From a virus: a stretch of 40,238 nucleotides of DNA. The position numbers were made by a program, and so were the translations under genes. How positions within the stretch are numbered: position 1 is the first letter of the stretch; each line of letters starts with the position of its first letter. Positions 768 to 37,163 of the stretch are shown piece by piece. The stretch lies in the UHGV virus genome UHGV-0383559; one strand, 5' to 3'. The notes under the pieces were generated by a model, which saw only the letters and a program-made list of their open reading frames with translations, was not told where the DNA came from and did no database searches.

Positions 768-887
768 GAAATCCAGAAGCACATAAACAGGCGGCACACC
801 CACCGCTCAAAGTAAGATGTGCCGCCCTTCCGTCTAAGGATAGTATACCACATTATACGTCCTTGGACAAGCCGAGGGGGTAAGAAT

Positions 888-1928
888 ATGGATAATAACC
901 AGACCGCAAAGAAGCATCTGATTGATAACGTATTAGTTGCAATGGCACAGTATTTGACCGCCGAAGTGCTCCAGATTCTTGAAAGAGTGCTGGCAGAGGA
1001 GTTGGTGAAGGTGGTGATGGAAGAGATCACCACGCTGCCGGCAGAAGTCAAGGACAGCGTGGACGACCAGAACAAGTACATTATCCAGCTCTTTTTATAT
1101 AAGAAGGGACGGCTTAAGGATGGCACGAAATATAACTATCTCAATTCGGTTAAGCGCCTGATCACCCTGATCTACAAGCCGCTAAACCAGATCGATGAGA
1201 TCGACATATATCGGTTCCTTGATTGGTATGAGCACCATAACGGGAACACAGGCCAGAAGAATCAGCCTGTTACGATCAACAACGAGCGCCGGAACCTTTG
1301 CGCATTCTATAGCTGGATGCGCAAGGAGAAGTTAATCGCATACAATCCGGTCGAGTCCATCGAACCGCTGAAAGTGATCCGCAAGCCTATCGACTATTTC
1401 CGGCCCGAAGAGATCGCCAAACTGCGGGACGGCTGCAAGACATTGCGGGAGCGGGCCATCGTAGAAGTCCTGCGCAGCACTGGCGCACGTGTGGGAGAGG
1501 TCATAGAGATCACCAAAGATATGATCAACTGGGAGACCGGCGATATCCTGATCCTCAGCGAAAAGGGAGAGCGTTACCGCACGATATACCTGGACCCGGA
1601 GGCCCGCTATCATCTGCACAAGTACCTTAACAGTCGGGAGGACTATACCCCGCAGCTCTTCGTACACGCCAGAAAGCCCTATAAGTCATTGTCAACCTGC
1701 GGGGTCCGCATGATCCTCAAAGACATTGCGGCACGGGTTGACATAACATCAAGGGTCTACCCGCATAAGCTGCGGAAAACCCTGGGAATGAACTTGAAGA
1801 ATAGCGGCGTTGACATCGGAACGATTCAGGAAATTTTGGGCCATGCAGGCCCGGAGGTGACAGCAGCATACTACGCTCAGTCCACACCCCAGACATTGCG
1901 TCAGGTGCGGGAGCGGACAGCGGCATAA
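888..1928 (+). CDS. Tyrosine site-specific recombinase (phage integrase / XerD family)
   Basis: Translation carries ARVGEV (catalytic Arg box), HKLRKT (His-x-x-Arg), LGHAG and a C-terminal AAYYAQ tyrosine. The ATG at 888 is preceded by GAGGGGGTAAGA; ORF-track 819 is an upstream alternative start. Confidence 0.9.
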   Translation: MDNNQTAKKHLIDNVLVAMAQYLTAEVLQILERVLAEELVKVVMEEITTLPAEVKDSVDDQNKYIIQLFLYKKGRLKDGTKYNYLNSVKRLITLIYKPLNQIDEIDIYRFLDWYEHHNGNTGQKNQPVTINNERRNLCAFYSWMRKEKLIAYNPVESIEPLKVIRKPIDYFRPEEIAKLRDGCKTLRERAIVEVLRSTGARVGEVIEITKDMINWETGDILILSEKGERYRTIYLDPEARYHLHKYLNSREDYTPQLFVHARKPYKSLSTCGVRMILKDIAARVDITSRVYPHKLRKTLGMNLKNSGVDIGTIQEILGHAGPEVTAAYYAQSTPQTLRQVRERTAA

Positions 1929-2821: not shown

Positions 2822-3187
2822 ATGCCGAAAGAAAAGATAATCCATTGTCCTTACTATGAGACAAGCAGCCGGAGTAACAAGGTGTATCCGACGATCACCT
2901 GTAGCCCGATTGAAAATAACCTGGGGTTCGATATCCGCAACCAGGTTGTTTTCTCGTGTCATGAAGAGAAGCACAACTATATCGGCATATTCTGCGCAGA
3001 TCAAGAGCTATATTCAACATGCCCGTATTATCGGGCCATCTATAAATACCAAAAAGGAGATCAAGAAAGTGAAAAAGAAAACAGGATTAAAGAGGCAGGC
3101 GCAGAGGGCGGAAACATTGTCAAAAATCGCCTGGGATCGAGTGCGCCAGAAAGAACAGGCCAGAAGAACGGCCAGGGTCGAAGCTGA
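2822..3187 (+). CDS. Cys-rich small protein (HCPYY...C...SCHEEKH...CPYY); possible zinc-binding regulator. The C-terminal tail may be mis-framed.
   Basis: ORF-track entry. Cysteine and histidine residues are spaced as in a zinc-binding domain in the first ~75 aa. The C-terminal ~45 aa are G/Q/R-rich and overlap the ORF below, so the true stop is uncertain. Confidence 0.4.
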   Translation: MPKEKIIHCPYYETSSRSNKVYPTITCSPIENNLGFDIRNQVVFSCHEEKHNYIGIFCADQELYSTCPYYRAIYKYQKGDQESEKENRIKEAGAEGGNIVKNRLGSSAPERTGQKNGQGRS

Positions 3188-3356
3188 TTCTGCTATCTGC
3201 GTTATCAGCCTGTTGGCGGCGCGCCTTGGTGATGAGGTCAAAATCACCCGACAGGAAATCGAGGAGGCCAGAAACAACGAATATGTCGCCAAACCATTGG
3301 ATGATGGCGGCTTTGTTCTGGTGCGTGCTGATCGGATTGAGGACCGGACACTATAG
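3068..3356 (+). CDS. Hypothetical small basic protein (96 aa), GTG start
   Basis: In the frame of ORF-track 2856..3356. GTG at 3068 is preceded by AAAGGAGA with an 8-nt spacer. The downstream sequence is amphipathic and protein-like (KKTGLKRQAQRAETLSKIAWDRVRQKEQ...). Confidence 0.35.
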
Positions 3357-3405
3357 TGTGTGCGCCTGCGCACACAGGTGTATGCGCGCGCGTAATGAGA
3401 AGCAA

Positions 3406-3431
3406 GGGAGCCAGCAATGGCTCCTTTTTTT
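3406..3431 (+). terminator. Rho-independent terminator before the late operon
   Basis: GGGAGCCA-gcaa-TGGCTCC stem-loop followed by TTTTTTT. A further GC palindrome, GTGTGCGC-ct-GCGCACAC, lies just upstream at ~3358-3375. Confidence 0.7.
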
Positions 3432-3457
3432 CGTGCCAAACCGGTCAAAACCGGACA

Positions 3458-3514
3458 GGAAATGGGGTGGGGGCATCGGCAAAAAAAATTAGATAAAATG
3501 GTTGACAGGAGGTG
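3458..3514 (+). promoter_or_regulatory. Conserved late-leader element, copy A: AAATGGGGTGGGGGCATCGGCAAAAAAAATTAGATAAAATGGTTGACAGGAGG
   Basis: Nearly identical to 13969..14027 (about 5 mismatches in 53 nt) and, over its 5' half, to 7759..7790. It sits between a terminator and the terS RBS and contains a GATAAAAT -10-like box. Confidence 0.6.
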
Positions 3515-3519
3515 AAGCA

Positions 3520-4062
3520 ATGGCAAGGCAGAGGTGGCAAGAGTGGGCAGAGAACGAAGAAAACCTATCTGTGTTGGCTGCATGGGCGCGGGCTGGGCAG
3601 ACGGACGAGGATATAGCCAAGGCAATCGGGATCAGCCGGTCCACGCTGTCCGAGTGGAAAAAGAAGCATGAGCCGATCCGTAAAGCCCTGTCAACTGGCA
3701 AGGATTTTGCGAATCGTCTGGTCGAAAACAGCCTGTTCAAGATGTCTCTGGGCTTCCACGTCACGGTGAAAAAAGTATTCAAGGTCAAAACGGTTGAGTT
3801 TGGCCCAGACGGCAAGCGTAAGGGAGAGAAGGAAGAGCTGCAAACCGCAGAGGAGACGGAATACATCAAGCCGGACACCCGGGCGATCATGTTCTATCTA
3901 AAAAACAAGATGCCGAACGAGTATCGCGAAAAGCTTCTGCCATCAGAGGGTGGGGAGGATGGCGAAAACGTAGGCATGGTCATTATGAATGAGGCAATGG
4001 CCGGGCAGATCAAAAAATTGATGGAGGAGGAGAAAGAAAAGCAGAATGCGGAACAAAGATAA
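3520..4062 (+). CDS. terS: Terminase small subunit
   Basis: HTH-containing N-terminus (DEDIAKAIGISRSTLSEWKK). It lies immediately upstream of and overlaps the large terminase gene. The ATG at 3520 is preceded by GACAGGAGGTG; ORF-track 3502 is an upstream extension. Confidence 0.8.
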   Translation: MARQRWQEWAENEENLSVLAAWARAGQTDEDIAKAIGISRSTLSEWKKKHEPIRKALSTGKDFANRLVENSLFKMSLGFHVTVKKVFKVKTVEFGPDGKRKGEKEELQTAEETEYIKPDTRAIMFYLKNKMPNEYREKLLPSEGGEDGENVGMVIMNEAMAGQIKKLMEEEKEKQNAEQR

Positions 4063-5533
4063 GCCATTCGACGCCAAGGAATACCTGCGCAAGCACCCGG
4101 TTCTGTGGGCACCAAATGAGCGGCAGCGGAAAATGATGTCCCGCATGGAGTATGAGGCGCTGTACGGTGGGGCCGCAGGCGGAGGAAAGACGGATTACTT
4201 GGTGGTGGAAGCACTGCGCCAAGTTCATATCAGGCATTATAGCGCAATTATCCTGAGAAAGACATACCCGGAGTTGGAGGATGTGATCAGTCGGTCCATG
4301 GAACTGTACCCAGCAGCCGTGCCGGGCTGCAAATATAACGAGTCCAAGCACATGTGGAGATTTCCGAGCGGTGCAAGAATCTATTTCGGCAGTATGCAGC
4401 ACACCAAGGACAAGTATCGATACCAGGGCCGACACTATGACTTTGTTGGATTCGACGAGCTGACACATTTCACCAAGGACGAATATATGTATCTGATCTC
4501 CCGTAACCGTTCATCCGGCCCTGGACTTAGGGTGTATGTGCGGGCAACCGCAAACCCTGGAGGAGTCGGACATCACTGGGTGAAGCAGCGCTTTGTCTCC
4601 GCAGCAAAACCGGAAACTACCATTGTGGAAGAACTGGAAATACCTGTTCCAGGAGGCGGTACCACAAAGATCACAAAGGACCGGATATTCATTCCGTCAA
4701 GCGTTCTGGATAATCCTGACTTGCGCAGGAACAATCCGGCCTATATGGCCTCTCTGGCCATGATGCCCGAGGCAGAGCGCAACGCACTGCTGTATGGAGA
4801 CTGGGACGCGTTCAGCGGCCAGGTGTTCTCCGAGTGGACCAACGACCCGGATAACTACGATACGCAGCAGTGGACCCATGTGATCAATCCATTCAAAATC
4901 CCGAATGGGTGGGAGATCATCCGAGGATACGATTTCGGATACGCCAAACCGTTCTCTGTTGGCTGGTACGCCGTGGATTATCGGGGCTGCATCTACCGTA
5001 TACGGGAGCTATACGGCGGAATAGAGGGAGAGGACAACGTGGGAATCAAGATTGACCCCGCGGAGCAGGCCCGCCAGATACGCGAGATTGAGGAGACGGA
5101 TGAAAACCTGAAAGGCCGGAGAATCACCGGAATAGCGGACCCGTCCATTTTCGACAAGTCCCGAGGCGAATCAATCGCGGATATTATGGCGAAAGAGCGG
5201 GTGTATTGGAATCCGGGAGATAACCACCGGATCGCAGGAAAGATGCAGTATCATTACCGCCTGGCCTTTGACGAGGATGGGCGCGCTATGTTCTACGTGT
5301 TTAACACCAGCAAGAACTTCATCCGCACCTTCCCCAATTTGGTATACGACGAGAAACACGTCGAGGACATCGATACAACACAGGAAGATCACATCTATGA
5401 CGAGTGCCGCTACGTGCTCATGTCCCGAGTGATCGCCACAAGGAAAAATGTGAAAAAGCCGGTTGATCTGAATGATCCGCTTGACCAGCGTGCCGACGAG
5501 ATCAAAAAAACATACAGGTTCATCCGAGTATAG
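4046..5533 (+). CDS. terL: Terminase large subunit (PBSX/XtmB-like)
   Basis: Walker A GGAAGGGKT, an ATPase domain followed by a nuclease domain, and a 495-aa size. Position is between terS and portal. Confidence 0.95.
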   Translation: MRNKDKPFDAKEYLRKHPVLWAPNERQRKMMSRMEYEALYGGAAGGGKTDYLVVEALRQVHIRHYSAIILRKTYPELEDVISRSMELYPAAVPGCKYNESKHMWRFPSGARIYFGSMQHTKDKYRYQGRHYDFVGFDELTHFTKDEYMYLISRNRSSGPGLRVYVRATANPGGVGHHWVKQRFVSAAKPETTIVEELEIPVPGGGTTKITKDRIFIPSSVLDNPDLRRNNPAYMASLAMMPEAERNALLYGDWDAFSGQVFSEWTNDPDNYDTQQWTHVINPFKIPNGWEIIRGYDFGYAKPFSVGWYAVDYRGCIYRIRELYGGIEGEDNVGIKIDPAEQARQIREIEETDENLKGRRITGIADPSIFDKSRGESIADIMAKERVYWNPGDNHRIAGKMQYHYRLAFDEDGRAMFYVFNTSKNFIRTFPNLVYDEKHVEDIDTTQEDHIYDECRYVLMSRVIATRKNVKKPVDLNDPLDQRADEIKKTYRFIRV

Positions 5534-5542
5534 GAGGTATAC

Positions 5543-7438
5543 ATGGACGAAGAGAATATTACAACAACAGAACAGGCAGAACAGCCAATCGACACCAAAG
5601 AAATTGACGAGGCCCTTCAAACCCTGCTCCAGTATAAGCGCGATAAACAAGCACTGACGGATCGGATCGTAAATGCTGAGGAGTGGTGGAAAAATAATCA
5701 CTGGGACAGGTTCAGCAGTGCATCCAGTAATTCCAACGACACGCAGCCGGTTAGCGCCTGGCTGTTTAACAGCATTATCAACAAGCACGCTGACTTCATG
5801 GACAATTTCCCCTGTCCTGCAATTCTGGAGCGCGAGGAGAGCGACAGGGAGATCGCCAAAATGCTGTCCTCCGTGGTGCCGGTAATCCTGGAGCAGAACG
5901 GGTTTGAGCGGACTTATTCGGAATGCTCCTGGGATAAGCCCAAGATCGGAACTGCAATCTATGGGGTGTTCTGGAACCCCGAGAAAGAAAATGGCTTGGG
6001 AGACATTGACATCAAGCACATGGACGTGATCAACATGTTTTGGGAGGCCGGGGTGGAAGATATCCAGAAATCCCGCAATGTCTTTACAGTCGAGATGATG
6101 GATCGGGACTTGCTGGAGGAAGAATACCCAGAGATCAAGGGCAAGAACCAAGCGGAGATCATCTACAAGCCGGAATATCTGTATGAGTCCAATTTGGACA
6201 CCACCAACAAGGTGCAGGTGATTGACTGGTATTACAAGAAGCGCATACGCGCCGATGTCAATGGGATCATAACCACCAAAACCATCTTGCACTACTGTAA
6301 GTTCATTCCGGGCGCGGTTCTGTATGCCACTGAAAACGACCCGGAAATGCAGTATACGGGATGGTATGACCATGGCATGTATCCGTTCGTGTGCGACACC
6401 ATGTTCCCGGAGAAGGGAAGCCCTGCGGGTTTTGGATACCTGGATATCATGGTCAATCCACAAGAGTACATCGACAAGTTGGACCAGGTGATACTCAAAA
6501 ACGCCATGTTGAACCGCCCCAGGTATTTTGTCTCAAACAGCGCGGGCATCAACGAGCAGGAATTTGCCGATATGTCCAACGATTTCGTACACTGCTCAGG
6601 CTCGGTGGATGAGTCCCAGATACAGCAGATCAAGGTCCCTCAGATGTCGGATGGTGTATTCAAAATCCGCGAGGAGAAGATCGAGGAGCTGAAGGAGACA
6701 TCCGGGAACCGCGACTTCTCGCAAGGGGGAACCACCTCCGGCGTGACCGCAGCAAGCGCCATTGCTGCGCTCCAAGAGGCCGGTAGTAAACTTTCCCGCG
6801 ACATGATCAAGGGAACCTATACCGCCTACTCCAGCACCGTCACAATGGTGATTGAGCTGATCCGGCAATTCTATACGCTCCCACGTTGCTACAGGATCAC
6901 ACAGCCCAATGGGGAGGCCCAGTACATTGAGCTGACCAATGAGAGCTTACAACCCCAGCAAGATAACATGATGGACGGGGAGCTTTCGGCCCGCAGACCG
7001 GTATTTGACATTAAGGTTGCGGCTCAGAAGGCCAGCCCATACAGCCGGATCGCCAACAACGAGTTAGCCAAGGAATTGTTCGGCATGGGCGTATTCAACC
7101 CGCAGATTGCAGATCAGGCAATGGCCGTGGTGACAATGATGGACTTTGACCGGCGAGACGAGGTCCTGAAAAAAATCCAGGAGAACGGCCTAATGTACCA
7201 GCAGTTGCAGCAGATGCAGGCTGCTATGGTCCAGATGGCCGATATAATCGCGCAGACAACGGGAAACACCCAACTGCTGGACGCGGTGGGCCAGATGGCG
7301 GGACCGGCACAGACCGGAATCAATGTCAATCCGCAGCAGGTGAGAACCAATAGTCTGGGCGCGCCTGTAAGCACCGATAACAGCCAGGCAGGCCAGGCCC
7401 GCGAACGGGTTGCCACGGCCACGGAGGTACGAGCATGA
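5543..7438 (+). CDS. Portal protein
   Basis: A 631-aa protein directly after terL. Its Q/A-rich C-terminus is typical of portals. The Prp protease gene follows, and its start overlaps the portal stop (ATGA). Confidence 0.85.
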   Translation: MDEENITTTEQAEQPIDTKEIDEALQTLLQYKRDKQALTDRIVNAEEWWKNNHWDRFSSASSNSNDTQPVSAWLFNSIINKHADFMDNFPCPAILEREESDREIAKMLSSVVPVILEQNGFERTYSECSWDKPKIGTAIYGVFWNPEKENGLGDIDIKHMDVINMFWEAGVEDIQKSRNVFTVEMMDRDLLEEEYPEIKGKNQAEIIYKPEYLYESNLDTTNKVQVIDWYYKKRIRADVNGIITTKTILHYCKFIPGAVLYATENDPEMQYTGWYDHGMYPFVCDTMFPEKGSPAGFGYLDIMVNPQEYIDKLDQVILKNAMLNRPRYFVSNSAGINEQEFADMSNDFVHCSGSVDESQIQQIKVPQMSDGVFKIREEKIEELKETSGNRDFSQGGTTSGVTAASAIAALQEAGSKLSRDMIKGTYTAYSSTVTMVIELIRQFYTLPRCYRITQPNGEAQYIELTNESLQPQQDNMMDGELSARRPVFDIKVAAQKASPYSRIANNELAKELFGMGVFNPQIADQAMAVVTMMDFDRRDEVLKKIQENGLMYQQLQQMQAAMVQMADIIAQTTGNTQLLDAVGQMAGPAQTGINVNPQQVRTNSLGAPVSTDNSQAGQARERVATATEVRA

Positions 7439-7848
7439 CACACATATACATAACCAACGGTATGGGATACGCCCGCGTGAAGATCGAGGGCCATGCCGGA
7501 TATGGAGCCGCAAACCACCTGCCGGAGGGACATGACCTGGTATGCGCTTCCGTGTCCATTCTGGGACAGACCGCGATGCAGATCGCGATAGACATGGAGA
7601 GCGAGAAGAAGGTGAGCATTGCGCAAATGACCTGCACCCCGGGCTTGATTGACCTGCGGATATTGCCGAAAAGCGCCCATGCAAAGGAGCTGCAAGACAA
7701 GATCGAGGCCATTAGAACAGGCTTTGAAATCTTGTCAAGCACTTTTTCTGACTATGTGAAAATGGGGTGGGGGCATCGGCAAATAAAATCTGGTATGGTA
7801 TACCCAGATGGCAAATGCCTGGCTCTCGGGAAAGACCGTGAAATATGA
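7435..7848 (+). CDS. prp: Prp-family cysteine protease (ribosomal-processing cysteine protease homologue, DUF464)
   Basis: GHAGYG...VCASVS motif carrying the catalytic His/Cys dyad of Prp. Its start overlaps the portal stop. Both downstream genes carry Prp cleavage motifs. Confidence 0.8.
   Translation: MTHIYITNGMGYARVKIEGHAGYGAANHLPEGHDLVCASVSILGQTAMQIAIDMESEKKVSIAQMTCTPGLIDLRILPKSAHAKELQDKIEAIRTGFEILSSTFSDYVKMGWGHRQIKSGMVYPDGKCLALGKDREI
7759..7790 (+). promoter_or_regulatory. Conserved late-leader element, partial copy B (GAAAATGGGGTGGGGGCATCGGCAAATAAAATC)
   Basis: 31-nt near-identity to copies A and C. It lies inside the 3' end of the Prp reading frame, in a different frame from the other copies, so conservation is at the nucleotide level. 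Confidence 0.5.
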
Positions 7849-7870
7849 CTCTCGGGAAAGACCGTGAAAG
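7819..7870 (+). repeat. Perfect 26-bp tandem duplication (GACTCTCGGGAAAGACCGTGAAA-containing unit) at the Prp-scaffold junction
   Basis: CTCTCGGGAAAGACCGTGAAA occurs twice, 26 nt apart. This creates LGKDRE in the Prp C-terminus and again in the upstream extension of the scaffold ORF. Confidence 0.8.
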
Positions 7871-7880
7871 GAGAACCAAA

Positions 7881-8756
7881 ATGAGAAGAAAAATGTTACT
7901 TGTGAATCTGCGATTGTTTGATGGAGAAGGAGGCGCGGGAGCCACCGCAGCCGCCGCAGCACCGGCGGCAGAGGGAACCGATACAGGGAGCGAAGCGGCA
8001 GAGGGGCAGGAAGCGGCAGAGGAAGAACCTGCGCAGCCGACGCCGGAGGAACGTAAAGCGGCCTATGAGAAATTCAAGGCTGAGTACAAGGACCTGTACA
8101 GTGAGGAGGTACAGTCCGCAATCAACCGTCGGTATCGGGAAAACCAGCAGCTCCACCAGCAGCTTGATTCCTACGGGCAGTTGCTTGACCTGCTGGGAGC
8201 ACGGTATCAGGTATCCGGTGGAAAGGTGGAGGACATTATCTCCGCCATTGAGAAGGACGACGCCATGTTTGAGGAGGCCGCAGCCAAGGAAGGGCTGACT
8301 GTGCAGCAGTACAAGGACATGCTGAATCTGCGCCGCCAGAACAATCAGCTCTTAAAGGCCCAGCAGCAGGCCGAACAGATTCGCCAGCGGGACCAGACCT
8401 GGGCCAGATGGAACCGGGAGGCAACGGAGTGCCAGCAGCAGTTCCCGGGATTCAACATGGATGCGGAATGCCAGAATCCCGAATTTGTCCGCCTCCTCGG
8501 CTCGGGAATCGATGTGACCACCGCCTATAAGGCGCTGCACTTTGACGAAATTAACCGCGGCCTGATCGCCACGGCGGAGAGCCAGACCAAAAAGAAGGTA
8601 GCTGACACAATCAGGTCCGGCGCGGCGCGGCCCTCTGAGAACGGGACAGGTAACGGAGCAGCCGCCAAGCTCAAAGTGGATGTGTGGAAACTGAGCAAGG
8701 AAGAATTCCGCAAATTACAGGATCGAGTAGACAACGATGAAAAGATTGTGCTTTGA
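7881..8756 (+). CDS. Scaffolding protein with N-terminal Prp cleavage motif
   Basis: ATG at 7881 is preceded by AAAGGAGAA. The N-terminus MRRKMLLVNLRLF/DGEGG resembles the L27/phage Prp site. It is followed by an Ala-rich linker and a coiled-coil, Q-rich body typical of scaffolds. ORF-track 7845 is an upstream extension. Confidence 0.7.
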   Translation: MRRKMLLVNLRLFDGEGGAGATAAAAAPAAEGTDTGSEAAEGQEAAEEEPAQPTPEERKAAYEKFKAEYKDLYSEEVQSAINRRYRENQQLHQQLDSYGQLLDLLGARYQVSGGKVEDIISAIEKDDAMFEEAAAKEGLTVQQYKDMLNLRRQNNQLLKAQQQAEQIRQRDQTWARWNREATECQQQFPGFNMDAECQNPEFVRLLGSGIDVTTAYKALHFDEINRGLIATAESQTKKKVADTIRSGAARPSENGTGNGAAAKLKVDVWKLSKEEFRKLQDRVDNDEKIVL

Positions 8757-8769
8757 CGAAAGGAGAACA

Positions 8770-9774
8770 ATGAACAGAACTATTAACAGAACAAGAGTCA
8801 TTTTGAAGGTGAACCTGAGATTATTTGAACTTAACACAACTGGCACTGATACGCTCAGCGCCGAGATGAAAACATTTTATGATCGGACCCTGATTGAAAC
8901 GGCAGAGCCGAACCTGGTACATGATCAGGCGGCACAGACCAGAAATATCCCTAAAAACGGGGGCAAAAAGATTGAGTTTCGCCGATATAATCCCTTGGAA
9001 AAAGCCTTGACGCCGCTGACCGAGGGTGTAACGCCTGAAGGACAGAAGATGAGCGTTACCACGCTGGAGGCAGAGGTTAAGCAGTACGGCGGATATATTT
9101 CCCTGTCTGATCTGCTGATCCTGACGGCAATCGACAAAAACATCCAGGAAGCCACCAAGATGATTGGCTCCCAGGCTGGACGGACTCTCGACACCATTTC
9201 GCGTGAGGTTATGAACACTGGAACCAACGTGATTTTTGGTGATGGTACAGTGACCGCTAGAAATCAGATTACCGCTAACATGAAACTGACCGTCGATATG
9301 GTCAAGCGTGCGGTCAGAGCATTAAAGGTTCAGCACGCGGAGAAGATCAACGGACATTATCTGGGCATCATCCATCAGGATTGCGCCTATGACCTGACCA
9401 GCGACAAGGAGCGTTTTATCGATGTGATCAAGTATAAGAACCCGGAACGTATCTATAATGGCGAGATCGGAACCCTTGAAGATGTCCGTTTCGTTGAAAC
9501 TTCGGAAGCCAAAAAGTTCGTGAGCGCCGGAGCGGATGGGATTGATGTATATTCCACACTGATCATTGGCGAAAATGCTTACGCAACGACGAAAGTTGAG
9601 GGCGGAGGATTGGAGACAATCATTAAGCAGCTCGGAAGCGCTGGAACCGCCGATCCGCTCAACCAGCGTGCAACGGTGGGCTGGAAAGCGCTGAAAGTGA
9701 CCGAAATTTTGACGGAGCAGTACATGATCCGACTTGAAACAGCATCCACATTCAACGACCATGCAGCGAACTAA
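8770..9774 (+). CDS. Major capsid protein (HK97-fold type) with N-terminal Prp cleavage motif
   Basis: ATG at 8770 follows AAAGGAGAACA. The N-terminus MNRTINRTRVILKVNLRLF/ELN carries the same VNLRLF motif as the scaffold. Position is after the scaffold gene. ORF-track 8737 would overlap the scaffold stop. Confidence 0.75.
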   Translation: MNRTINRTRVILKVNLRLFELNTTGTDTLSAEMKTFYDRTLIETAEPNLVHDQAAQTRNIPKNGGKKIEFRRYNPLEKALTPLTEGVTPEGQKMSVTTLEAEVKQYGGYISLSDLLILTAIDKNIQEATKMIGSQAGRTLDTISREVMNTGTNVIFGDGTVTARNQITANMKLTVDMVKRAVRALKVQHAEKINGHYLGIIHQDCAYDLTSDKERFIDVIKYKNPERIYNGEIGTLEDVRFVETSEAKKFVSAGADGIDVYSTLIIGENAYATTKVEGGGLETIIKQLGSAGTADPLNQRATVGWKALKVTEILTEQYMIRLETASTFNDHAAN

Positions 9775-9784
9775 GGAGGTAACA

Positions 9785-10123
9785 ATGGCTAGAAGTAAAA
9801 TTGAAGCAACCGCAGATACATTTACTGCTGAGGTAATGGAAGATGAGAAAACCGTAGAAAAAGAAACTGAGGTTGAGAATGCTATGGAAAAGAAGCCGCC
9901 CAAAAAGGAGCCGGAAAAGACGGTAAGATTCAAGTTGTTTAAAGACGGTGGAAAGTACAAAGGGGATAAATTCGTTGGTGTCAATGGCAAGGGATATTTG
10001 GTGGAACGCGGTGTATGGGTTGACCTTCCTGAATCCGTCTACAACGTGCTGGCGCTGTCTGAGGAGCAGATTCAGGTGGCCGAGCGAGTGATGGAAGAAA
10101 GCCGGATGGTGGAATACAAATAA
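9785..10123 (+). CDS. Hypothetical head-associated structural protein (112 aa)
   Basis: ATG at 9785 is preceded by AGGAGGT. Position is directly after the capsid gene. The protein has an acidic N-terminus. Confidence 0.55.
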   Translation: MARSKIEATADTFTAEVMEDEKTVEKETEVENAMEKKPPKKEPEKTVRFKLFKDGGKYKGDKFVGVNGKGYLVERGVWVDLPESVYNVLALSEEQIQVAERVMEESRMVEYK

Positions 10124-10139
10124 TCTGGAGGTGGGATAG

Positions 10140-11477
10140 ATGATAACAGTCAGAGGACGACAGCTGGTAATTCCGAGAGACGAGAACCAGATCGGCACAA
10201 CCTACGACGATAACTCTGAGGTCAGGCGCTTTCTGATCGACCGTGTGACGTTCGGCGGAATTGATCTGTCCCACCTGAATTTCCGCCTGGACCTGGAGTA
10301 CCAAGGAGAAAAAAAGGACACAAGCCTGCTGGACGTTGAGGTACGAGAGGACAGTATCTTATTGACCTGGACAATACCGCACAGTTGCTTGACAGCTGCC
10401 GGAACCGTATGGATCGCCATTCGCGGATACGACGATAATGGCACAGTCAAGTGGGCCACGAATAAGGGCGCGGTATACGTCGAGGACACAATCGATACCC
10501 CGGGAAGCAATCCTCCTGGTCTGACAGAGCTGGAGCAGTTGGAGCGCCGGATCGAGGAAAAAACTGAAATGCTGGACGCCAATGAGGGAGAGCGCCAGCA
10601 GAATGAGGTAATACGGCAGGAAAACGAGCAGAGACGCCAGAATAACGAGGCAGAGTGGCAGAGGCAGGCAGAGACGGCAATCGGCCAGGCCAACACCACC
10701 TTGCAGGGAGCCAATGACGCCAAGGAGGCAGCACAGGGATCGGCAACAAGTGCGGCTGAATCTGCTACAGCCGCAAACGCATCCAAGGAAGCCGCAGCGA
10801 GCAGCGCACAGGAGGCAGAGGAGAGCGCGGCAGAGGCGCAGCGGATATCCCAGGGATTCGCAGGGTTCGATGGTACAGCCCTTTCAGTCCCGGCGGTCGA
10901 CGTGCAGGGACTTGTAGGGCAGGCTGGAAGCACAAGCAACGTGCAGGCTATGCTCGATTATCTGGCCGTGAAAGTAGCGCAGGAATTGGTCGGAAATGAG
11001 GCGCTGACCACAAAGCTGCTGGACTATGTGACGAAATCATCCATTGTTCAGACGGAGAGTACAGACCCCACCACAGTGCCTTCAAGCCCGTATTTTAAGC
11101 AAGTGACTGGTAAGCTAATTAGTGATTTAACTGAGTCCAAAAATGAAGTATTACTCTATTCTGGGAAGATAAAATATAACGATGAAATCAGCGTTCCAAA
11201 CTTACACAAGTATAAGTTGTTCCATCTCGGGGATAACCAAAATGAACTTTATGGGTGTGATGTGGGTGGTGTTGTTGGAAACGTATTAGAGTTTAATTTA
11301 TCAGGCCAAGTATCAGGACGAGCCGTATTTTCATCAATTAAATTTCACATAATCAAAGCCAATACCCTGAAAGTGATTTTTAATATACAAGTTAATGTTA
11401 CCGCTGACAATGCTATAGAGTATGTTAGCTTGGAAAGAGAGAGTCAAATAACGTTATGGGGAGTGCCTTTAATCTAA
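10140..11477 (+). CDS. Tail-fibre-like protein with coiled-coil Ala/Gln-rich shaft and AT-rich C-terminal domain
   Basis: RBS GGAGGTGGGATAG. The central region is EAxxAA/coiled coil. The last ~120 codons (about 11130-11477) are markedly AT-rich relative to the rest of the gene, suggesting a mosaic receptor-binding end. Confidence 0.6.
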   Translation: MITVRGRQLVIPRDENQIGTTYDDNSEVRRFLIDRVTFGGIDLSHLNFRLDLEYQGEKKDTSLLDVEVREDSILLTWTIPHSCLTAAGTVWIAIRGYDDNGTVKWATNKGAVYVEDTIDTPGSNPPGLTELEQLERRIEEKTEMLDANEGERQQNEVIRQENEQRRQNNEAEWQRQAETAIGQANTTLQGANDAKEAAQGSATSAAESATAANASKEAAASSAQEAEESAAEAQRISQGFAGFDGTALSVPAVDVQGLVGQAGSTSNVQAMLDYLAVKVAQELVGNEALTTKLLDYVTKSSIVQTESTDPTTVPSSPYFKQVTGKLISDLTESKNEVLLYSGKIKYNDEISVPNLHKYKLFHLGDNQNELYGCDVGGVVGNVLEFNLSGQVSGRAVFSSIKFHIIKANTLKVIFNIQVNVTADNAIEYVSLERESQITLWGVPLI

Positions 11478-11481
11478 TTGA

Positions 11482-11955
11482 TCATTTTGCAATCGCGATC
11501 CAGAACACAGACAACTCAGAGGCAGAAGTGCCGTTATAGACTACACCAGTTACCTTTTGTGTGTCACGGCTTAATGGCGCTGCACTGCGCAAGTCTGGGC
11601 GTGATGTTACTGCACTCATAACCACCTCAGGATATTTCGAAAACGGTTTTGGGAAATTCACCGTAAATTCAGTCGTGCCGTTTGCAGCAGCGTTGACTGT
11701 TGCAATTCCAGATTGTATATCAGCACCTGTAACATAACTGGCCCAATCAGTCCACACCGATCCATTATATCGCCTGGTGTGTGTACGATCATAGACCGTT
11801 ATGCGCTGGATCACGTACCCAGTTGTTGCGATAACCTCCAAATTACCGGCTACGCTACCGGGTGAGTTGAGAATTGATGGCTCCCCATTGAAACGATATA
11901 TACCAGGACTTCTATAATTATTGAAATCACCAGTAACGGCTCCACGATCAACCAC
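11482..11955 (-). CDS. Start-less tail-fibre C-terminal cassette (knob-like receptor-binding domain), convergent with the fibre gene
   Basis: Translation begins VVDRGAVTGDFNNYRSPGIY, resembling the opening of tail-fibre knob domains. The reading frame has no ATG; only GTG at 11955. No SD precedes it. The frame is open for 9 further codons upstream through an S-D-L codon triplet identical to one in the + fibre gene. Confidence 0.5.
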   Translation of the reverse strand: MVDRGAVTGDFNNYRSPGIYRFNGEPSILNSPGSVAGNLEVIATTGYVIQRITVYDRTHTRRYNGSVWTDWASYVTGADIQSGIATVNAAANGTTEFTVNFPKPFSKYPEVVMSAVTSRPDLRSAAPLSRDTQKVTGVVYNGTSASELSVFWIAIAK

Positions 11956-12025
11956 TAAATCACTATATTGAGTAGTAACTCATCCACCAACAACGCCCCG
12001 GATATCCGGGAGAAAGGAAAAATCA

Positions 12026-12436
12026 ATGAATGAAAAAGTGAGACTGAAAAACGGAAATGAGTACCCGCTGGTACTTGGTGGTACATCATCCAGCCCTGAG
12101 ACTCTGCACATGCTGCTTAAGACGGATGATACACTTGAACATTTGATTACTGTTTTTTCGAACTCGACGAACACGGAACAGATCAGGACAATCAATGAGG
12201 ATGGTAGAACGCTGGCCGTGTATGACGGATACACGGTGCTGCGTGATCCTAAGGCAACTTATGATCATTATCTGATCAGCCAGGAACAGTACGACGAGGA
12301 AGGAAATGTTACCACGGAGGCTGTCTATGGCCGTGTAGCACTTCTGAAACTCTCACAGCCATATGTGGAGGCTCAGGTGGAGCAGAACCGGGCGGACATT
12401 GATTTCCTGGCCGTTATGACCGGGACTAACTTATAA
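12026..12436 (+). CDS. Hypothetical protein (136 aa). Its position matches that of XkdW-like proteins preceding the lysis cassette.
   Basis: ATG at 12026 is preceded by GGGAGAAAGGAAAAA. No recognisable motifs. Confidence 0.55.
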   Translation: MNEKVRLKNGNEYPLVLGGTSSSPETLHMLLKTDDTLEHLITVFSNSTNTEQIRTINEDGRTLAVYDGYTVLRDPKATYDHYLISQEQYDEEGNVTTEAVYGRVALLKLSQPYVEAQVEQNRADIDFLAVMTGTNL

Positions 12437-12449
12437 CAGGAGGTACAAG

Positions 12450-12584
12450 ATGGATGTGAAAGCGTTGGCAAAAAAGTATTATCCGAGGTTATGGGATATC
12501 GACCGCCTTAAAGCCCTGGTAGCTGCCGGGAAACTGGCGGAGGCGGACTACAAAGAAATTACGGGAGAGGAGTATAAGGCATGA
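12450..12584 (+). CDS. xkdX: XkdX-family small phage protein (44 aa), missing from the ORF track
   Basis: ATG at 12450 follows CAGGAGGT. The translation is MDVKALAKKYYPRLWDIDRLKALVAAGKLAEADYKEITGEEYKA. It ends with the ITGEEY-type motif and size of the XkdX family. Its stop overlaps the holin ATG (ATGA). Confidence 0.6.
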   Translation: MDVKALAKKYYPRLWDIDRLKALVAAGKLAEADYKEITGEEYKA

Positions 12585-13072
12585 AAAAGGAATATGTAAT
12601 TGCCATCCAGGGGGCCGTGACCGCAGTGGTGGCATATCTCTCGGATCGCCTGGGAGTCTTATTCCCAGTAATGTGCATACTGGTATTCGCCATGGTAGCC
12701 GACTATTTCAGCGGCATGATGGCGAGCAAGCGGGAAGCCCTGGATCACCCGAACGATCCATCTTACGGCTGGTCCAGCAAAAAGGGAGCCAAGGGGATTA
12801 TCAAGAAGGTAAGCTATCTGTGCGTGATTGCCGTGGCTATGATCGTAGATTACGTGATTGCCGTTGCTGCTGGATATCTGGACATTACAATGCCTGTAAC
12901 GGCCTTCTTTGGCCTCCTGGTGACATTATGGTATGTTTTGAACGAGCTGCTGTCCATCATTGAGAATGCCGGACGCATGGGGGGATCGGTCCCGGAGTGG
13001 CTCAGAAAATATATTGCGGTCCTGAAGGACAAGATCGACAGTGAATACGATGCAGGTGATAAGGGAACCTGA
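12581..13072 (+). CDS. Holin (phage_holin_4 / phi-LC3 family-like)
   Basis: A 163-aa protein with several hydrophobic transmembrane segments and a charged C-terminal tail. It lies immediately upstream of the endolysin. Confidence 0.8.
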   Translation: MKKEYVIAIQGAVTAVVAYLSDRLGVLFPVMCILVFAMVADYFSGMMASKREALDHPNDPSYGWSSKKGAKGIIKKVSYLCVIAVAMIVDYVIAVAAGYLDITMPVTAFFGLLVTLWYVLNELLSIIENAGRMGGSVPEWLRKYIAVLKDKIDSEYDAGDKGT

Positions 13073-13167
13073 AGGAGGTGATCCAACATCTCCCACCGGA
13101 TGGGTTAATACCGGACGTATACAGCAGCCCTGGGGAGACTCAGGGCATTATTTTAGAGGAGGTACTT

Positions 13168-13932
13168 ATGAGCATCATGATAGGACATGCTGGATCAGAT
13201 GAGCATGGAAAATATACCGGCGGAACAGCCGGGGACCAGAAGGGAACGGAAGTATGCGTAAGAGAATGGTATAACCGTCCCTGGAATGTTGTGTTGCGCC
13301 CTAAGAGCGCATATGTGGCCGCTGATATGGTCCGGGCCATGCGCGATGCCTGCGCTAATGACAATATTGGCTATGACCAGAATCAACGTACTACGCTGTA
13401 TACACAGGCCAAAGCTGTAGATTGGGATATCACCAAGATAACAACCCCCTGCGAAACAGATTGTAGTGCACTTATCGCGGTATGTGCCAACGTAGCCGGT
13501 GTCAAGGTAAGTAAGGACATCTACACCGGTAACATGGTCAAGGCGCTGAAAGCAACCGGCCAGTTTGATATATTGGCGGACGGCAAGTATCTGTCCAGCG
13601 ACCAGTATTTGCAGGCGGGCGACGTGTTGGTGTATGAGGGCCATCACACGGCTATGGCATTGCAGTATGGAGCACAGGCGGCATATCGTAAGGGCTGGAA
13701 CTATGACTATTATGGATGGTTCTATTCACCGTCTGGTGGACGCGACTATCTTATGTCCTGCTGGCAGGTGATCAACCGCCACAAGTATTATTTCAACGGC
13801 GATGGCTACGCCATGACGGATTGGCAGATAATTGGAGGCAAGGACTATTATTTCGAACCGCGCGCAGGACATCCGCTGGAATGCGCATTATACATTGCCC
13901 CGGAGGGCGCACAGTACATAGGGGAGTTCTAA
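13168..13932 (+). CDS. Endolysin: NlpC/P60-type peptidase with C-terminal cell-wall-binding repeats
   Basis: ATG at 13168 follows AGAGGAGGT. The catalytic Cys context CETDCSALI and the later GDVLVYEGHHTAMAL His are present. The C-terminus carries YYGWFY / KYYFNGDGYAMTDWQ / GGKDYYF choline-binding-like repeats. The 13078 GTG start in the ORF track lacks workable SD spacing. Confidence 0.8.
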   Translation: MSIMIGHAGSDEHGKYTGGTAGDQKGTEVCVREWYNRPWNVVLRPKSAYVAADMVRAMRDACANDNIGYDQNQRTTLYTQAKAVDWDITKITTPCETDCSALIAVCANVAGVKVSKDIYTGNMVKALKATGQFDILADGKYLSSDQYLQAGDVLVYEGHHTAMALQYGAQAAYRKGWNYDYYGWFYSPSGGRDYLMSCWQVINRHKYYFNGDGYAMTDWQIIGGKDYYFEPRAGHPLECALYIAPEGAQYIGEF

Positions 13933-13938
13933 CACATT

Positions 13939-13963
13939 GGCAGGTCATTGCGGCCTGCCTTTT
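13939..13963 (+). terminator. Rho-independent terminator after the lysis cassette
   Basis: GGCAGGTC-attgc-GGCCTGCC stem followed by TTTT. Confidence 0.7.
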
Positions 13964-13968
13964 GCGTG

Positions 13969-14027
13969 CAAAATGGGGTGGGGGCATCGACCAAAAAAAT
14001 CCGATAAAATGGTTGACAGGAGGGACG
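13969..14027 (+). promoter_or_regulatory. Conserved late-leader element, copy C: AAATGGGGTGGGGGCATCGACCAAAAAAATCCGATAAAATGGTTGACAGGAGG
   Basis: Same element as 3458..3514. Again it sits directly after a terminator and directly before an RBS/ATG (14031). Confidence 0.6.
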
Positions 14028-14030
14028 CTT

Positions 14031-14402
14031 ATGACATTAGGGAAATTAATTGAGAAAATTGTGGAACAGAAGGGGCAGCAGTATGACACGGGAATCCTGA
14101 CGGACTGGGTGAACGAGATCGAGGGCCAGGCCGTGGAAGAGGTAATCAACCAGGCAGATGGGAACAATATTGCTTTCGTACCCTATGATTACACCCAGGA
14201 CGTGGAACGCACTTTGCGGATTCCAGATAGATTTCAGGACGTATACCTGAACTATCTGTACGCCAAGATCGATTTCGGCAACCAGGAGACAGAGCGCTAC
14301 AACAACGACGTGGCAATGTATAACGCCTCCTATGAGGCATACGCGGCGTGGTTCCGGCGAGAGCATCGCCCTAAGAAGCGCGCCATGTTTTCGAAATTTT
14401 AG
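14031..14402 (+). CDS. Hypothetical protein (124 aa), first gene of the second late unit
   Basis: ATG at 14031 immediately follows the conserved element and its GACAGGAGG. ORF-track 13716..14402 extends upstream across the terminator and element and is unlikely to be real. Confidence 0.55.
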   Translation: MTLGKLIEKIVEQKGQQYDTGILTDWVNEIEGQAVEEVINQADGNNIAFVPYDYTQDVERTLRIPDRFQDVYLNYLYAKIDFGNQETERYNNDVAMYNASYEAYAAWFRREHRPKKRAMFSKF

Positions 14403-14413
14403 GAGGTGAGGAC

Positions 14414-15979
14414 ATGAGATTACCATTTCTTCGCACTGCGGCCCAGGAACAGCGAAAACAGATCGGTCAATTCTTGGGACTGAATAAGAATCTGGTCATC
14501 AACGAGAACGAATTTTCCGATATGAAGAACATGTCCTCGGATCGATTCCCGGCCATCTGCACCCGCCGCCCGCGCGGTGAGATAATGAAAACGCTGGGGA
14601 AACCGCACGGCCTGTTCCACAAGAACGGCCTTGCATACGTTGATGGCACAAAACTGTATTACAAGGACCAGGCCGTAGCCGACGTGACCGACACCGACAA
14701 GATCATGGTGGGGATCGGGGCCTATATCGTGATCTGGCCGGACAAGATCATGTATAACACCGCAGACGGCACGGTAACGCCCCTGGAGGTCACCTGGACG
14801 CAATCGGCCACGGCCACGTTCTCCTTGACCACCGCAGGCTCCACGATGGTCAAAATTGCCTGCACCGGGATCGGCAAGGCGTTCCAGCGGTACGACGCGG
14901 TAACAATATCCGGCTGCACCAACGCTGGATTCAACAAGACCGCAGTGATCCAGGAGAAGGAGGACAACTACATCGTCGTGATCGGGGACCTGTCGGCCAC
15001 ATTCACACAAGCCTCCGGCCTGACGCTGAAGCGCACCGTACCGGATATGGATTATGTCTGCGAAAGCGAGAATCGCCTGTGGGGCTGCTCCAGCGCCAAC
15101 CACGAAATCTACGCATCCAAGCTGGGGGACCCCACCAACTGGCAGGCATTCGAGGGGATCAGCACAGATTCCTACGCGGTCACGGTGGGATCAGATGGGG
15201 ACTTCACCGGCTGCATATCCCACCTGGGATATGTCCTGTTTTTCAAGGGTGACACCATCCACAAGGTGTTCGGCAATAAGCCCAGCAACTACCAGGTCAC
15301 CACATCAACCCCTATGCGCGGTGTTGCTAAGGGCTGCGAGGGGACCATCTGTATCGTCAATGAGACGTTGCTGTATGTCAGCCGGGACGATGTGTGCAGC
15401 TACGACGGCGCACAGCCGGAGAGCATCGGTGAGGCAGTCAAGGGCCTGGGATTCGACGCCGGAACGGCAAGCCACTATAATGGCAAGTATTATGCCTCCC
15501 TGCGCGATTCAGCGGGCAGCTGGGGCCTCTACGTGTTCGACCTTAGCAAGGGCCTATGGCATAAGGAAGATAGCCTCCACGCCCTGTATATGGCCTACGG
15601 AGAGGGCGAGCTGTATTGTATCGACGAGCACGGCAACCTCTTCACCATTGCAGGCGACCGGCAGGAAACAATCTCCTGGAGCCTGGAATCCGGTGATCTC
15701 ATTGAGGGCAGCGTGGAGTATAAGCACGTCAAGCGCCTGCTGTACAACATGATCATCACGCCGGGCGCAGAGGTCAATGCCTACATCAGATACGACGACG
15801 ATCCAGATTGGAAGAAGATTAACACCTTCACCGGAAAGTCTTACCGGACCCACATCATGACCGTGGTCCCCGGCAGGTGTCAAAGGTACCGCATCCGCCT
15901 GGACGGGATCGGGGACGTAACGCTGATCGCAATAGGCAAGGTAATTGGACAGGGGAGTGAATTACATGGCAGTCTATAA
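14414..15979 (+). CDS. Putative tail/virion structural protein (521 aa)
   Basis: Strong RBS TAGGAGGTGAGGAC. It is a large beta-rich protein immediately upstream of the fibre genes. No catalytic motifs were recognised. Confidence 0.55.
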   Translation: MRLPFLRTAAQEQRKQIGQFLGLNKNLVINENEFSDMKNMSSDRFPAICTRRPRGEIMKTLGKPHGLFHKNGLAYVDGTKLYYKDQAVADVTDTDKIMVGIGAYIVIWPDKIMYNTADGTVTPLEVTWTQSATATFSLTTAGSTMVKIACTGIGKAFQRYDAVTISGCTNAGFNKTAVIQEKEDNYIVVIGDLSATFTQASGLTLKRTVPDMDYVCESENRLWGCSSANHEIYASKLGDPTNWQAFEGISTDSYAVTVGSDGDFTGCISHLGYVLFFKGDTIHKVFGNKPSNYQVTTSTPMRGVAKGCEGTICIVNETLLYVSRDDVCSYDGAQPESIGEAVKGLGFDAGTASHYNGKYYASLRDSAGSWGLYVFDLSKGLWHKEDSLHALYMAYGEGELYCIDEHGNLFTIAGDRQETISWSLESGDLIEGSVEYKHVKRLLYNMIITPGAEVNAYIRYDDDPDWKKINTFTGKSYRTHIMTVVPGRCQRYRIRLDGIGDVTLIAIGKVIGQGSELHGSL

Positions 15980-16898
15980 GCCCATACAGATAGACGGAGA
16001 CGAGGATATCAAGGTCCTGATGAAGAAGCTATATCGCTTCAACGAGGACCTACGTTACACGATGTCCAATTTGGACCTCGCGGACAACTGCCCAGGAATC
16101 TTGAATAAGATTGACGAGCGAGACGACATGCTCCGCACCATCAAGTGGGACGCGGACCAGCTGCACATACAGTACGACGACCTGGAGACGGCCACAACCA
16201 CCAGCCTGCGCCAGTCAGAGGACGCAATCAACCTGTTGGTCAGCCGGGGATCGGTGGTGGATACTCTGATCACCCGACTGGACATCTATAAGGAGTCAAT
16301 CACGTTGAAATCCAATCAGATCGAGATTGACGCCAACAATATGACACTTGATCGGGCGGGTAATACCGTGTTTACAGGGAGCATTACTGGCGGATACATA
16401 CGGTTGGCAAACGGAAAGTTCTGGGTCAATGAGGATGGAGACTGTTACATCGACGACGAACTGATCACGGAGACGTTGAACCCGTCCGACGGTATATTTG
16501 CTGCACAGCTGGAGGTATACAACGACGATGAAGTGATGATCTATATAACCGACACGATCAACGCCGGAGAGGCGTACATCGGTGGTGAGCTTAATTGCCG
16601 CCAGGTCAAGCAGCGGTCGGACCACCGCGTAAAGAAGCACATAACCAGCCTGGAACCGTCGAAGTGCGCCAAGATCGTGAGGCAGTTGCAGCCGAAGTCA
16701 TTCCGATTCATCGGATCGGGAATCCCGTCAATCGGTTTTGAGGCCCAGGACGTGTACCGTATACAGGATGATCTCCCGCTCGTGGGCCGCAACGGGGCAT
16801 ACCTGGAGATTCCATACGCGAACTGCACGGCACTCCTGGCGGGAGCGATCCAGGACAACCAGCGGCGCATAGATCGCCTGAAAAGGATGGTGATGTAA
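15966..16898 (+). CDS. Tail fibre/tailspike with C-terminal intramolecular chaperone auto-processing domain (Peptidase S74-like)
   Basis: The C-terminal RSDHRVKKHI carries the Ser/Lys dyad (S-D-x-x-x-K) of self-cleaving fibre chaperone domains. SITGGYIRL fibre-like repeats are present. ATG at 15966 follows GGGGAGTGA; ORF-track 15945 is an upstream extension. Confidence 0.75.
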   Translation: MAVYKPIQIDGDEDIKVLMKKLYRFNEDLRYTMSNLDLADNCPGILNKIDERDDMLRTIKWDADQLHIQYDDLETATTTSLRQSEDAINLLVSRGSVVDTLITRLDIYKESITLKSNQIEIDANNMTLDRAGNTVFTGSITGGYIRLANGKFWVNEDGDCYIDDELITETLNPSDGIFAAQLEVYNDDEVMIYITDTINAGEAYIGGELNCRQVKQRSDHRVKKHITSLEPSKCAKIVRQLQPKSFRFIGSGIPSIGFEAQDVYRIQDDLPLVGRNGAYLEIPYANCTALLAGAIQDNQRRIDRLKRMVM

Positions 16899-17830: not shown

Positions 17831-18042
17831 AAGTGATGTATGACGAGACAGAAGTAGCAACCATGAAAACCCTGCTAAGACAGATACAGGTAATCGGGGA
17901 TCAGCAGGCGGCAATCCTGGCAATGCTGGGCCAGACGGTCCGTAGCGGAAAAGTTGTAGAAGAGGAGCAGCCGAAGCAAGCAGCGAAACGGCAGAGGAAG
18001 GCCAAGCAGCTTGCGACAGAACCGGAGAAGGAGGAAAAATAA
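17827..18042 (+). CDS. Hypothetical small protein (71 aa)
   Basis: ORF-track entry. Its start ATGA overlaps the previous stop. It has a Lys/Glu-rich C-terminus. Confidence 0.45.
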   Translation: MKVMYDETEVATMKTLLRQIQVIGDQQAAILAMLGQTVRSGKVVEEEQPKQAAKRQRKAKQLATEPEKEEK

Positions 18043-19265: not shown

Positions 19266-19272
19266 GGCAGTT

Positions 19273-32644: not shown

Positions 32645-32711
32645 AATTCACCTCACATTCTTTTATAATCCAATGATACAAGCCAGTCATAAAAAAGTCA
32701 ATAGAAAAGAA

Positions 32712-32740
32712 GATTTATTATTGACAAATATGAATAACTT
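32712..32740 (+). promoter_or_regulatory. Consensus sigma-A early promoter (TTGACA-17-TATAAT) in the repressor/early divergent region
   Basis: TTGACA at 32712-32717, a 17-nt spacer and TATAAT at 32735-32740. It lies about 60 nt upstream of the first early gene. Confidence 0.7.
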
Positions 32741-32800
32741 GTATATAATTGCATTATAAAACAAGTGAATCATATTTTTCGGAGGAGAGGAGGAAACCAA

Positions 32801-37154: not shown

Positions 37155-37163
37155 GAGGCATAC

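Follow-up and report, generated by a model that had tools for sequence, protein, structure and literature searches.

A shared G-rich box at a fixed distance from a −10 element marks three probable late promoters in a temperate Enterocloster lavalensis prophage

The virus genome UHGV-0383559, a stretch of 40,238 nucleotides (nt) referred to here in its full length as the window, belongs to a temperate, podovirus-like phage in which a short G-rich element recurs three times: before the small-terminase gene terS (copy A), before a scaffold-like gene (copy B) and before a block of internal-virion and fibre genes (copy C). The same prophage, with all three copies, is present in Enterocloster lavalensis KCTC 15153. 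The question raised by such a repeat is what the copies do and whether they act as DNA or as RNA. The initial annotation of the sequence took them for a late-gene control element conserved at the DNA/RNA level; the data described below support such an element well, with its action at the level of DNA. The three copies are probably late promoters of the sigma-A type whose use depends on a factor bound at about −44 to −30 (coordinates in Table 1). What is directly observed is the repeat, its constant spacing from a −10 hexamer, its conservation in related prophages and its co-variation within each phage.

The 19-mer AAATGGGGTGGGGGCATCG has three exact occurrences in the window, all on the plus strand, compared with a mean of 0.03 matches in shuffled sequence even when three mismatches are permitted. 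Between copies A (3460-3512) and C (13971-14023), 4 of 53 positions are different (92% identity); both terminate in AGGAGG, 7-8 nt upstream of the ATG codons at 3520 and 14031, respectively, whereas copy B corresponds to the first 30 nt of the other two with one mismatch and is divergent beyond. Within the window, GGGTG-N24-TAnnnT as a relaxed pattern finds these three sites and no others. A position matrix trained exclusively on relatives scores B at 41.1, C at 31.5 and A at 29.6 bits, while the best non-site on either strand reaches 4.5 bits; this gap indicates that the window contains exactly three copies. The threefold occurrence initially proposed is thus borne out, as are the match of B to the first ~31 nt and the layout of A and C, each lying behind an intrinsic terminator (hairpin plus T-run) and each running into a Shine-Dalgarno sequence. 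The positions first given were 1-2 nt off, and the ~5 differences counted between A and C become four. The assertion that the copies fall in three reading frames does not hold: the mechanical open reading frames (ORFs) show two registers, KWGGGI in A and C and KMGWGH in B.

Structurally, each copy combines the G-rich box with a downstream −10 hexamer. If the hexamer is placed at −12 to −7 from the predicted start, GGGTG occupies −41 to −37, the window 19-mer spans −45 to −27, and the conserved box takes up approximately −44 to −30. The −10-like sequence GATAAAAT, noted earlier after the G-rich block, contains the hexamer that stands at a fixed distance from the core in all lineages except one (L203, discussed below). 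The predicted leaders are ∼14 nt long for A and C and ∼75 nt for B; since the predicted starts lie 3′ of the box, the box itself would be absent from transcripts of these promoters. No usable −35 element is present: TTGACA is matched at only 1-3 of six positions at 16-18 nt spacing, and a consensus promoter scan of the window does not list A, B or C. In contrast, the early promoter of the same genome has a perfect −35. By homology, the A and C sites are intergenic, with the gene at 14031 matching phrog_12105 from residue 1, and B lies inside the non-conserved 3′ end of the ORF for the Prp-like protease, in which the Pfam match stops at residue 109, where B starts.

Comparison with related prophages carries most of the argument. 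Relatives were collected from IMG/VR, a protein database and contigs by homology to TerS and to the product of gene X, a small cysteine-rich ORF of the early block; the motif was not used. This yielded ∼10 related Lachnospiraceae prophage lineages, with proteins ∼45-75% identical to those of the window in nine of them. Upstream of terS, the GGGTG core lies exactly 29 nt (start to start) before [T/C]AnnnT in the L024, L131/L019, L045, L122/L047, L198, L201, L202, L204 and L205 types, so that the recurrence before terS suggested as a check on the element is found, with core and −10 geometry kept, in nine further lineages. A second copy with the same geometry is located at the protease-scaffold junction in every lineage in which this junction is readable (6/6). 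Across the full alignment of 19 instances from 11 lineages, [T/C]AnnnT always begins 29 nt after the start of GGGTG, and the information resides in GGGTG, in two G residues ∼3 positions further on, in the T, A and final T of the −10, and in a TG two bases 5′ of the hexamer. The conserved block is asymmetric (GGGTGkkrG, ∼−41 to −33), and the 24-nt interval between core and hexamer consists of sequence that is largely unrelated between lineages, without indels.

Two further patterns in the alignment bear on how these sites may be recognised. Sites with the TG extension have poorer hexamers (mean 4.3/6, n=12) than sites without it (mean 5.7/6, n=7), a difference whose significance (Mann-Whitney p=3.6e-4) is indicative only, the sites being related by descent. 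Weak hexamers are therefore offset by the TG extension, which suggests that the sites behave as genuine −10 elements of the housekeeping (sigma-70-family) sigma factor. In addition, each phage carries its own box variant, the same at its terS and scaffold sites: GGGTGGGAGACA, GGGTG[T/C]TGGATTC, GGGTGTTGGAAAC, GGGTGGGGGAAC or GGGTGGGGGCAT. The L122 type has two copies without a single difference over 40 nt. The sharing of one variant by both sites of a phage points to one common recognising factor per phage. The window flavour, GGGGTGGGGGCAT, recurs in L201, L204 and L205, whose X proteins are 47-65% identical to that of the window.

Exact-box scans of species-representative genomes and metagenomes returned, beyond chance matches, only this prophage (Enterocloster lavalensis, metagenome-assembled genome fragment) and a phage of the L005 type; a scan of IMG/VR with a degenerate box plus −10 gave mostly chance matches outside the family. 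Searches of the phage GenBank collection for complete annotated relatives yielded only unannotated fragments at ∼66% identity, and nothing useful for the L005 type. The L005/L077 phage appears to be an unrelated carrier, as the sole similarity detected between its proteins and those of the window (∼10 kb compared) is a 41%-identical endolysin. Behind its endolysin terminator, it carries a module ordered terminator, box, extended −10, gene, placed 5′ of an antirepressor-like gene (Bro-N) close to the end of the prophage. The 22-nt box is identical to that of the window, and the module is ∼86% identical to copy B through the −10. Its presence before the Bro-N gene of an unrelated phage therefore argues for a portable promoter that is not tied to particular structural genes.

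In the best reading of these data, A, B and C define three late transcription units; promoter activity, start sites, activator dependence and the identity of the activator are inferred from sequence. Host RNA polymerase with the housekeeping sigma factor would be unable to use A, B and C unaided. A factor produced late in the early programme would bind the box beside or over the −35 position and recruit or stabilise polymerase, through class-II-type activation or sigma appropriation. Promoter A would then transcribe terS, terL, portal and Prp; B would boost scaffold and capsid and continue to holin and endolysin; and C, beyond the terminator of the lysis cassette, would start transcription anew for the internal-virion proteins, the fibres and the giant polyvalent proteins. 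The late units would be shielded from read-through by the terminators that precede A and C. The positions are functionally sensible because they lie behind terminators and directly before the ribosome-binding sites (RBSs) of the packaging, head and tail blocks. Copy C is probably a lineage-specific duplicate of A, set behind the lysis-cassette terminator, since it shares 92% of its positions with A up to and including the RBS and the site is absent from the L047 and L011 types. In both of these, the homologue of the gene at 14031 follows its upstream gene without an intervening terminator or promoter, and in the L047 type the two genes directly abut.

Other readings of the same geometry need to be weighed. 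Two conserved blocks at a fixed distance, with the housekeeping −35 absent, could also describe a promoter that an alternative sigma factor of phage or host recognises directly, with the G-rich box as an extended −35 and no separate activator; a conserved host sigma would also explain why GGGTG is constant across phages with ∼50% identical proteins and in an unrelated phage. However, the domain scans detected no sigma-70 region 2 or 4 in any window ORF, which speaks against the phage-encoded sigma factor offered as an option by the initial annotation; moreover, the −10 resembles the housekeeping type, TG-extension compensation included, the 24 nt from GGGTG to the hexamer exceed the usual −35/−10 spacers, and the exact box is not found outside the prophage in species-representative genomes. 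Direct reading by an alternative sigma is accordingly considered unlikely. Two more specific readings, both tried by eye, were rejected: a sigma-54 interpretation of the box, for which the GG-N10-GC spacing is unfit, and a minus-strand promoter with a C-rich, sigma-I-type −35, which has no downstream conservation and no genes to serve. If, instead, the −10 and extended −10 promoters were active on their own, the box could be the operator of a repressor that silences late genes in the lysogen, as it overlaps the −35 region, a frequent repressor target, and TG-extended −10 elements of the B type can function without a −35. Yet the A-type sites of several lineages have neither TG extension nor −35 and should be weak alone, and the matrix scan finds no box-like sequence near 32650-32950, the immunity region beside the helix-turn-helix (HTH) repressor gene. 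Late genes of temperate phages are usually off through the absence of an activator rather than through a second repressor, which further reduces this operator model to a very unlikely one.

The location of A and C between a terminator and an RBS, together with conservation at the nucleotide rather than the protein level, is what an RNA element would display, whether read-through transcripts carried it as an antitermination signal, a processing signal or a leader structure, and antitermination had been among the functions first suggested. The element is nevertheless placed 3′ of the terminators, where it cannot modify polymerase before them, and, with the predicted starts, the box lies outside the late transcripts. 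Its folding is no better than that of shuffled sequence (z = −0.8, −1.2 and +0.1) and differs between the three copies, the window has zero Rfam matches, and only the GGGTG core and −10 positions are kept between lineages, with no compensatory pattern. A function in RNA form is thus hardly credible. It is just as improbable that the copies are non-functional duplicated remnants, be it coding debris or recombination scars. The 92% identity of A and C through the RBS does resemble a recent duplication, and B does overlap an ORF tail, but core and −10 spacing are kept at ∼50% protein identity while flanks and spacer are scrambled, and the motif is read in two registers. Furthermore, the Prp match stops where B starts and the gene at 14031 begins at its own Met by homology.

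Activator-dependent late promoters can be set beside known phage systems. The Ltr-controlled terS promoters (RinA, ArpU, LtrA/Sigma70_r4, LtrB/DUF1492, LtrC) are tightly regulated, lie directly 5′ of terS and drive morphogenesis and lysis genes (PMC3753634, PMC3152322), as is predicted here. The hosts are Firmicutes in both cases, and the position of the regulator gene is occupied here by X, a likeness of position only. Unlike the Ltr regulators, X matches no Ltr Pfam family, is smaller (∼80-residue core) and has four invariant cysteines; while Ltr systems have one promoter copy, this phage has two to three. The late operons of P2 each carry a shared upstream element and a poor −35 and are controlled by the zinc-finger activators Ogr/Delta; the P2 activator is ∼72 residues long with a Cys4 zinc site, and its element is a TGT-N12-ACA dyad centred near −55. 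The arrangement of several operons with a shared element and a poor −35 is similar here, and X resembles the activator in size and cysteine count. However, the box, at −44 to −30, lacks symmetry, the aligned sites show no conservation around −55, the Pfam search with X found no Ogr_Delta domain at E<=1, the cysteines of X are spaced differently, and the host is a Gram-positive anaerobe.

A phage-specific box in place of the −35, combined with a housekeeping-type −10 and present in many genome copies, also characterises T4 middle promoters, where a MotA box centred at −30 and a sigma-70 −10 are used with AsiA-mediated sigma appropriation, and P1 late promoters, where Lpa acts with a −10 and a repeat near −22. 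Box position and sequence differ from those described here, and the window yielded no homologue of MotA, AsiA or Lpa. Lambda Q at PR′ offers a likeness in that the regulator gene is last in the early operon beside the late promoter and terminators are involved. Lambda, however, has a single strong consensus promoter followed by a read-through terminator, whereas here the −35 is absent, the terminators lie upstream and the element is present three times; no terminator-like site occurs between the copies and the next genes, and the arrangement of Q-type antitermination is thus lacking. In its way of working, the element resembles the Ltr/RinA, P2 Ogr/Delta, P1 Lpa and T4 MotA sets, all of which have a common box instead of the −35 and a phage factor that recognises it. 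It is nevertheless a demonstrable member of none of them, since the protein families of Ltr and Ogr are not matched and the box differs in position and symmetry.

Which protein would read the box? The early genes of every box-bearing relative end with X, joined by Y in some lineages, ahead of the terminator and promoter A; it is at this position that Gram-positive phages typically encode their late activators (PMC3753634). This position makes X, whose product had already been considered as a binder in the initial annotation, a possible, still tentative, candidate for the box-reading factor, with a conserved host factor as a live alternative. The X family comprises 27 clusters, all annotated as hypothetical, and has a conserved core of ∼80 residues with four invariant cysteines (C9, C27, C58, C67). 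A sequence-profile search of X against PDB returned nothing. AlphaFold models of X are of low confidence (predicted local distance difference test, pLDDT, of 40 with 6 sequences and 59 with 24 sequences), and Foldseek found no PDB match at E<1 for the better model. When X, Y and all other unassigned early ORFs were compared with Pfam, PHROGs and NCBIfam, no regulator or sigma family emerged, and even at E<=1 nothing matched X or Y. Several box-bearing lineages lack Y, which is therefore unlikely to be essential for the promoters. The X ORF has a ∼118-nt non-conserved, low-complexity tail that overlaps Y, while X in relatives ends at ∼77-110 residues; the real X product may be shorter than 121 residues, or X and Y may truly overlap.

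A bolder proposal joins two claims: that X founds a new family of small four-cysteine late activators, a fifth type beside the Ltr families, acting at a −40 box of sigma-A promoters without a −35, and that an L005-type prophage captured the promoter module, such that a gene of one prophage could be turned on when another is induced (cross-talk). Taken together, these claims are rather doubtful.

Several observations weigh against activator-dependent promoters read by X. In L203, the most distant X-bearing phage, X abuts terS and no recognisable box is present. X belongs to no known regulator family in the Pfam and NCBIfam scans, its divergence does not track the box variant, and two scans with a few peptide patterns, of limited sensitivity, found no window-like X on the L005 contig. 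Extended −10 promoters such as B could fire without an activator, and the box may then serve another protein, such as a repressor. Finally, the counts of instances overstate independence, since the relatives share ancestry.

Table 1. Coordinates of the putative late promoters and of other features of the window, with the boxes of the unrelated carrier phage on their own contigs
Feature	Position	Strand	Details
Promoter A (predicted)	3460-3499	+	box 3460-3478; GGGTG 3465-3469; A-rich spacer; −10 TAAAAT 3494-3499; predicted start ∼3505-3507; RBS 3507-3512; terS ATG 3520
Promoter B (predicted)	7760-7799	+	box 7760-7778; TG extension 7791-7792; −10 TATGGT 7794-7799 (TGgTATGGT); predicted start ∼7806; 75-nt leader to scaffold-like ATG 7881
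Promoter C (predicted)	13971-14010	+	box 13971-13989; −10 TAAAAT 14005-14010; predicted start ∼14016; RBS 14018-14024; ATG 14031 opens internal-virion/fibre/giant-protein block
Tyrosine integrase	819-1928		
Rolling-circle Rep	2023-2811		
Gene X	2822-3187	+	small Cys-rich orphan ORF; last conserved early-block gene
Gene Y	3069-3356	+	95 residues; GTG start behind AAAGGAG
Intrinsic terminator	3404-3434 (hairpin 3404-3427)	+	10-bp stem and T-run; closes early block (integrase, Rep, X, Y) just 5′ of promoter A
Packaging block	3520-7848		terS-like HTH protein (ATG 3520), terL, P22-type portal, Prp-like protease
Head/lysis block	7881-13932		scaffold-like gene (ATG 7881), capsid, fibre-like proteins, holin, endolysin
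Intrinsic terminator	13939-13963 (hairpin 13939-13959)	+	behind endolysin gene; ends head/lysis unit
Internal-virion/fibre block	14031-28908		phrog_12105 protein (ATG 14031), internal virion protein, fibres, 3211-residue protein with PBECR nuclease domains
Serine recombinase	29012-30598	−	
HTH repressor	32189-32644	−	
Early promoter	32721-32749		perfect TTGACA-17-TATAAT; faces away from HTH repressor gene; presumably the early lytic promoter
ParA, HNH-like protein, ParB-like protein	36085-38168		
L005 box	7212-7230	−	
L077 box	4303-4321	−	

In the genome around these sites, one prophage has both a tyrosine integrase and a serine recombinase alongside a rolling-circle Rep and a ParA/HNH-like/ParB-like set (819-2811, 29012-30598, 36085-38168). 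The element may integrate, persist as a plasmid or do both. Integrase and Rep are placed between the early genes and terS, a synteny kept in relatives, and a hairpin and T-run equivalent to the terminator before promoter A is found in all of them. The region between X/Y and promoter A (3340-3458) contains two further features. Repeats of the ACCGGACA type are located at 3343-3350, 3440-3447 and 3450-3457 and are kept in every relative (for example L046, L047, L204 and L205), and an alternating purine-pyrimidine inverted repeat, GTGTGCGC...GCGCACAC...GCGCGCG (∼3355-3393), has an equivalent in every relative. Both features are confined to site A, beside the rolling-circle Rep and terS genes, and could represent a replication origin, a nick site or a pac site.

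The block downstream of promoter C ends in the 3211-residue ORF (19273-28908), which makes up 24% of the genome, encodes nuclease domains of the types PBECR5 and PBECR3 and contains a tandem duplication of 141 nt (28240-28521). Its product is apparently a polyvalent protein of the type that Iyer et al. described (PMC5512222), and 8-kb ORFs of similar type have been reported from Clostridium clostridioforme LM41 prophages (PMC11318856). Within the head/lysis block, a minus-strand ORF (11482-11955) with a Gp53-like tail-fibre C-terminal domain lies directly behind the plus-strand fibre-like gene at 10140-11477. This reversed ORF is reminiscent of an invertible fibre cassette; an invertible segment at ∼11482-11955 was rejected, as it is flanked only by a weak inverted repeat of 20 nt and 75% identity (11259-11278, 11987-12006).

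The predicted leader of the scaffold-like gene, downstream of promoter B, shows a repeat of its own. Between 7820 and 7869, it contains two tandem copies of a 23-26-nt unit, GACnCnCr-GGArAGA-CyGyG, with up to five copies in relatives, and the unit is also present 3′ of the B promoters in L024, L034, L036, L131 and L198. Each unit can fold as a small hairpin with a conserved GARAGA loop, and one stem pair covaries (G-C in eight units, A-U in six, unpaired in none). These hairpins may form an RNA operator for translational control of scaffold or capsid synthesis, for which the autoregulation of the P22 scaffold comes to mind as a parallel.

Phages of gut Lachnospiraceae are abundant, and their gene regulation is essentially uncharacterised. 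The motif described here is a well-conserved, probable late-promoter signature of a little-studied Lachnospiraceae prophage family, although the principle of late operons sharing a promoter type is already known. Were X indeed the activator, it would constitute a new family among the late regulators of Gram-positive phages; otherwise, this would be an ordinary case of several late operons sharing one promoter type. The signature GGGTG-N24-TAnnnT serves as a marker for late-operon starts in this prophage family, and it also yields precise start-site predictions and a bait for the activator.

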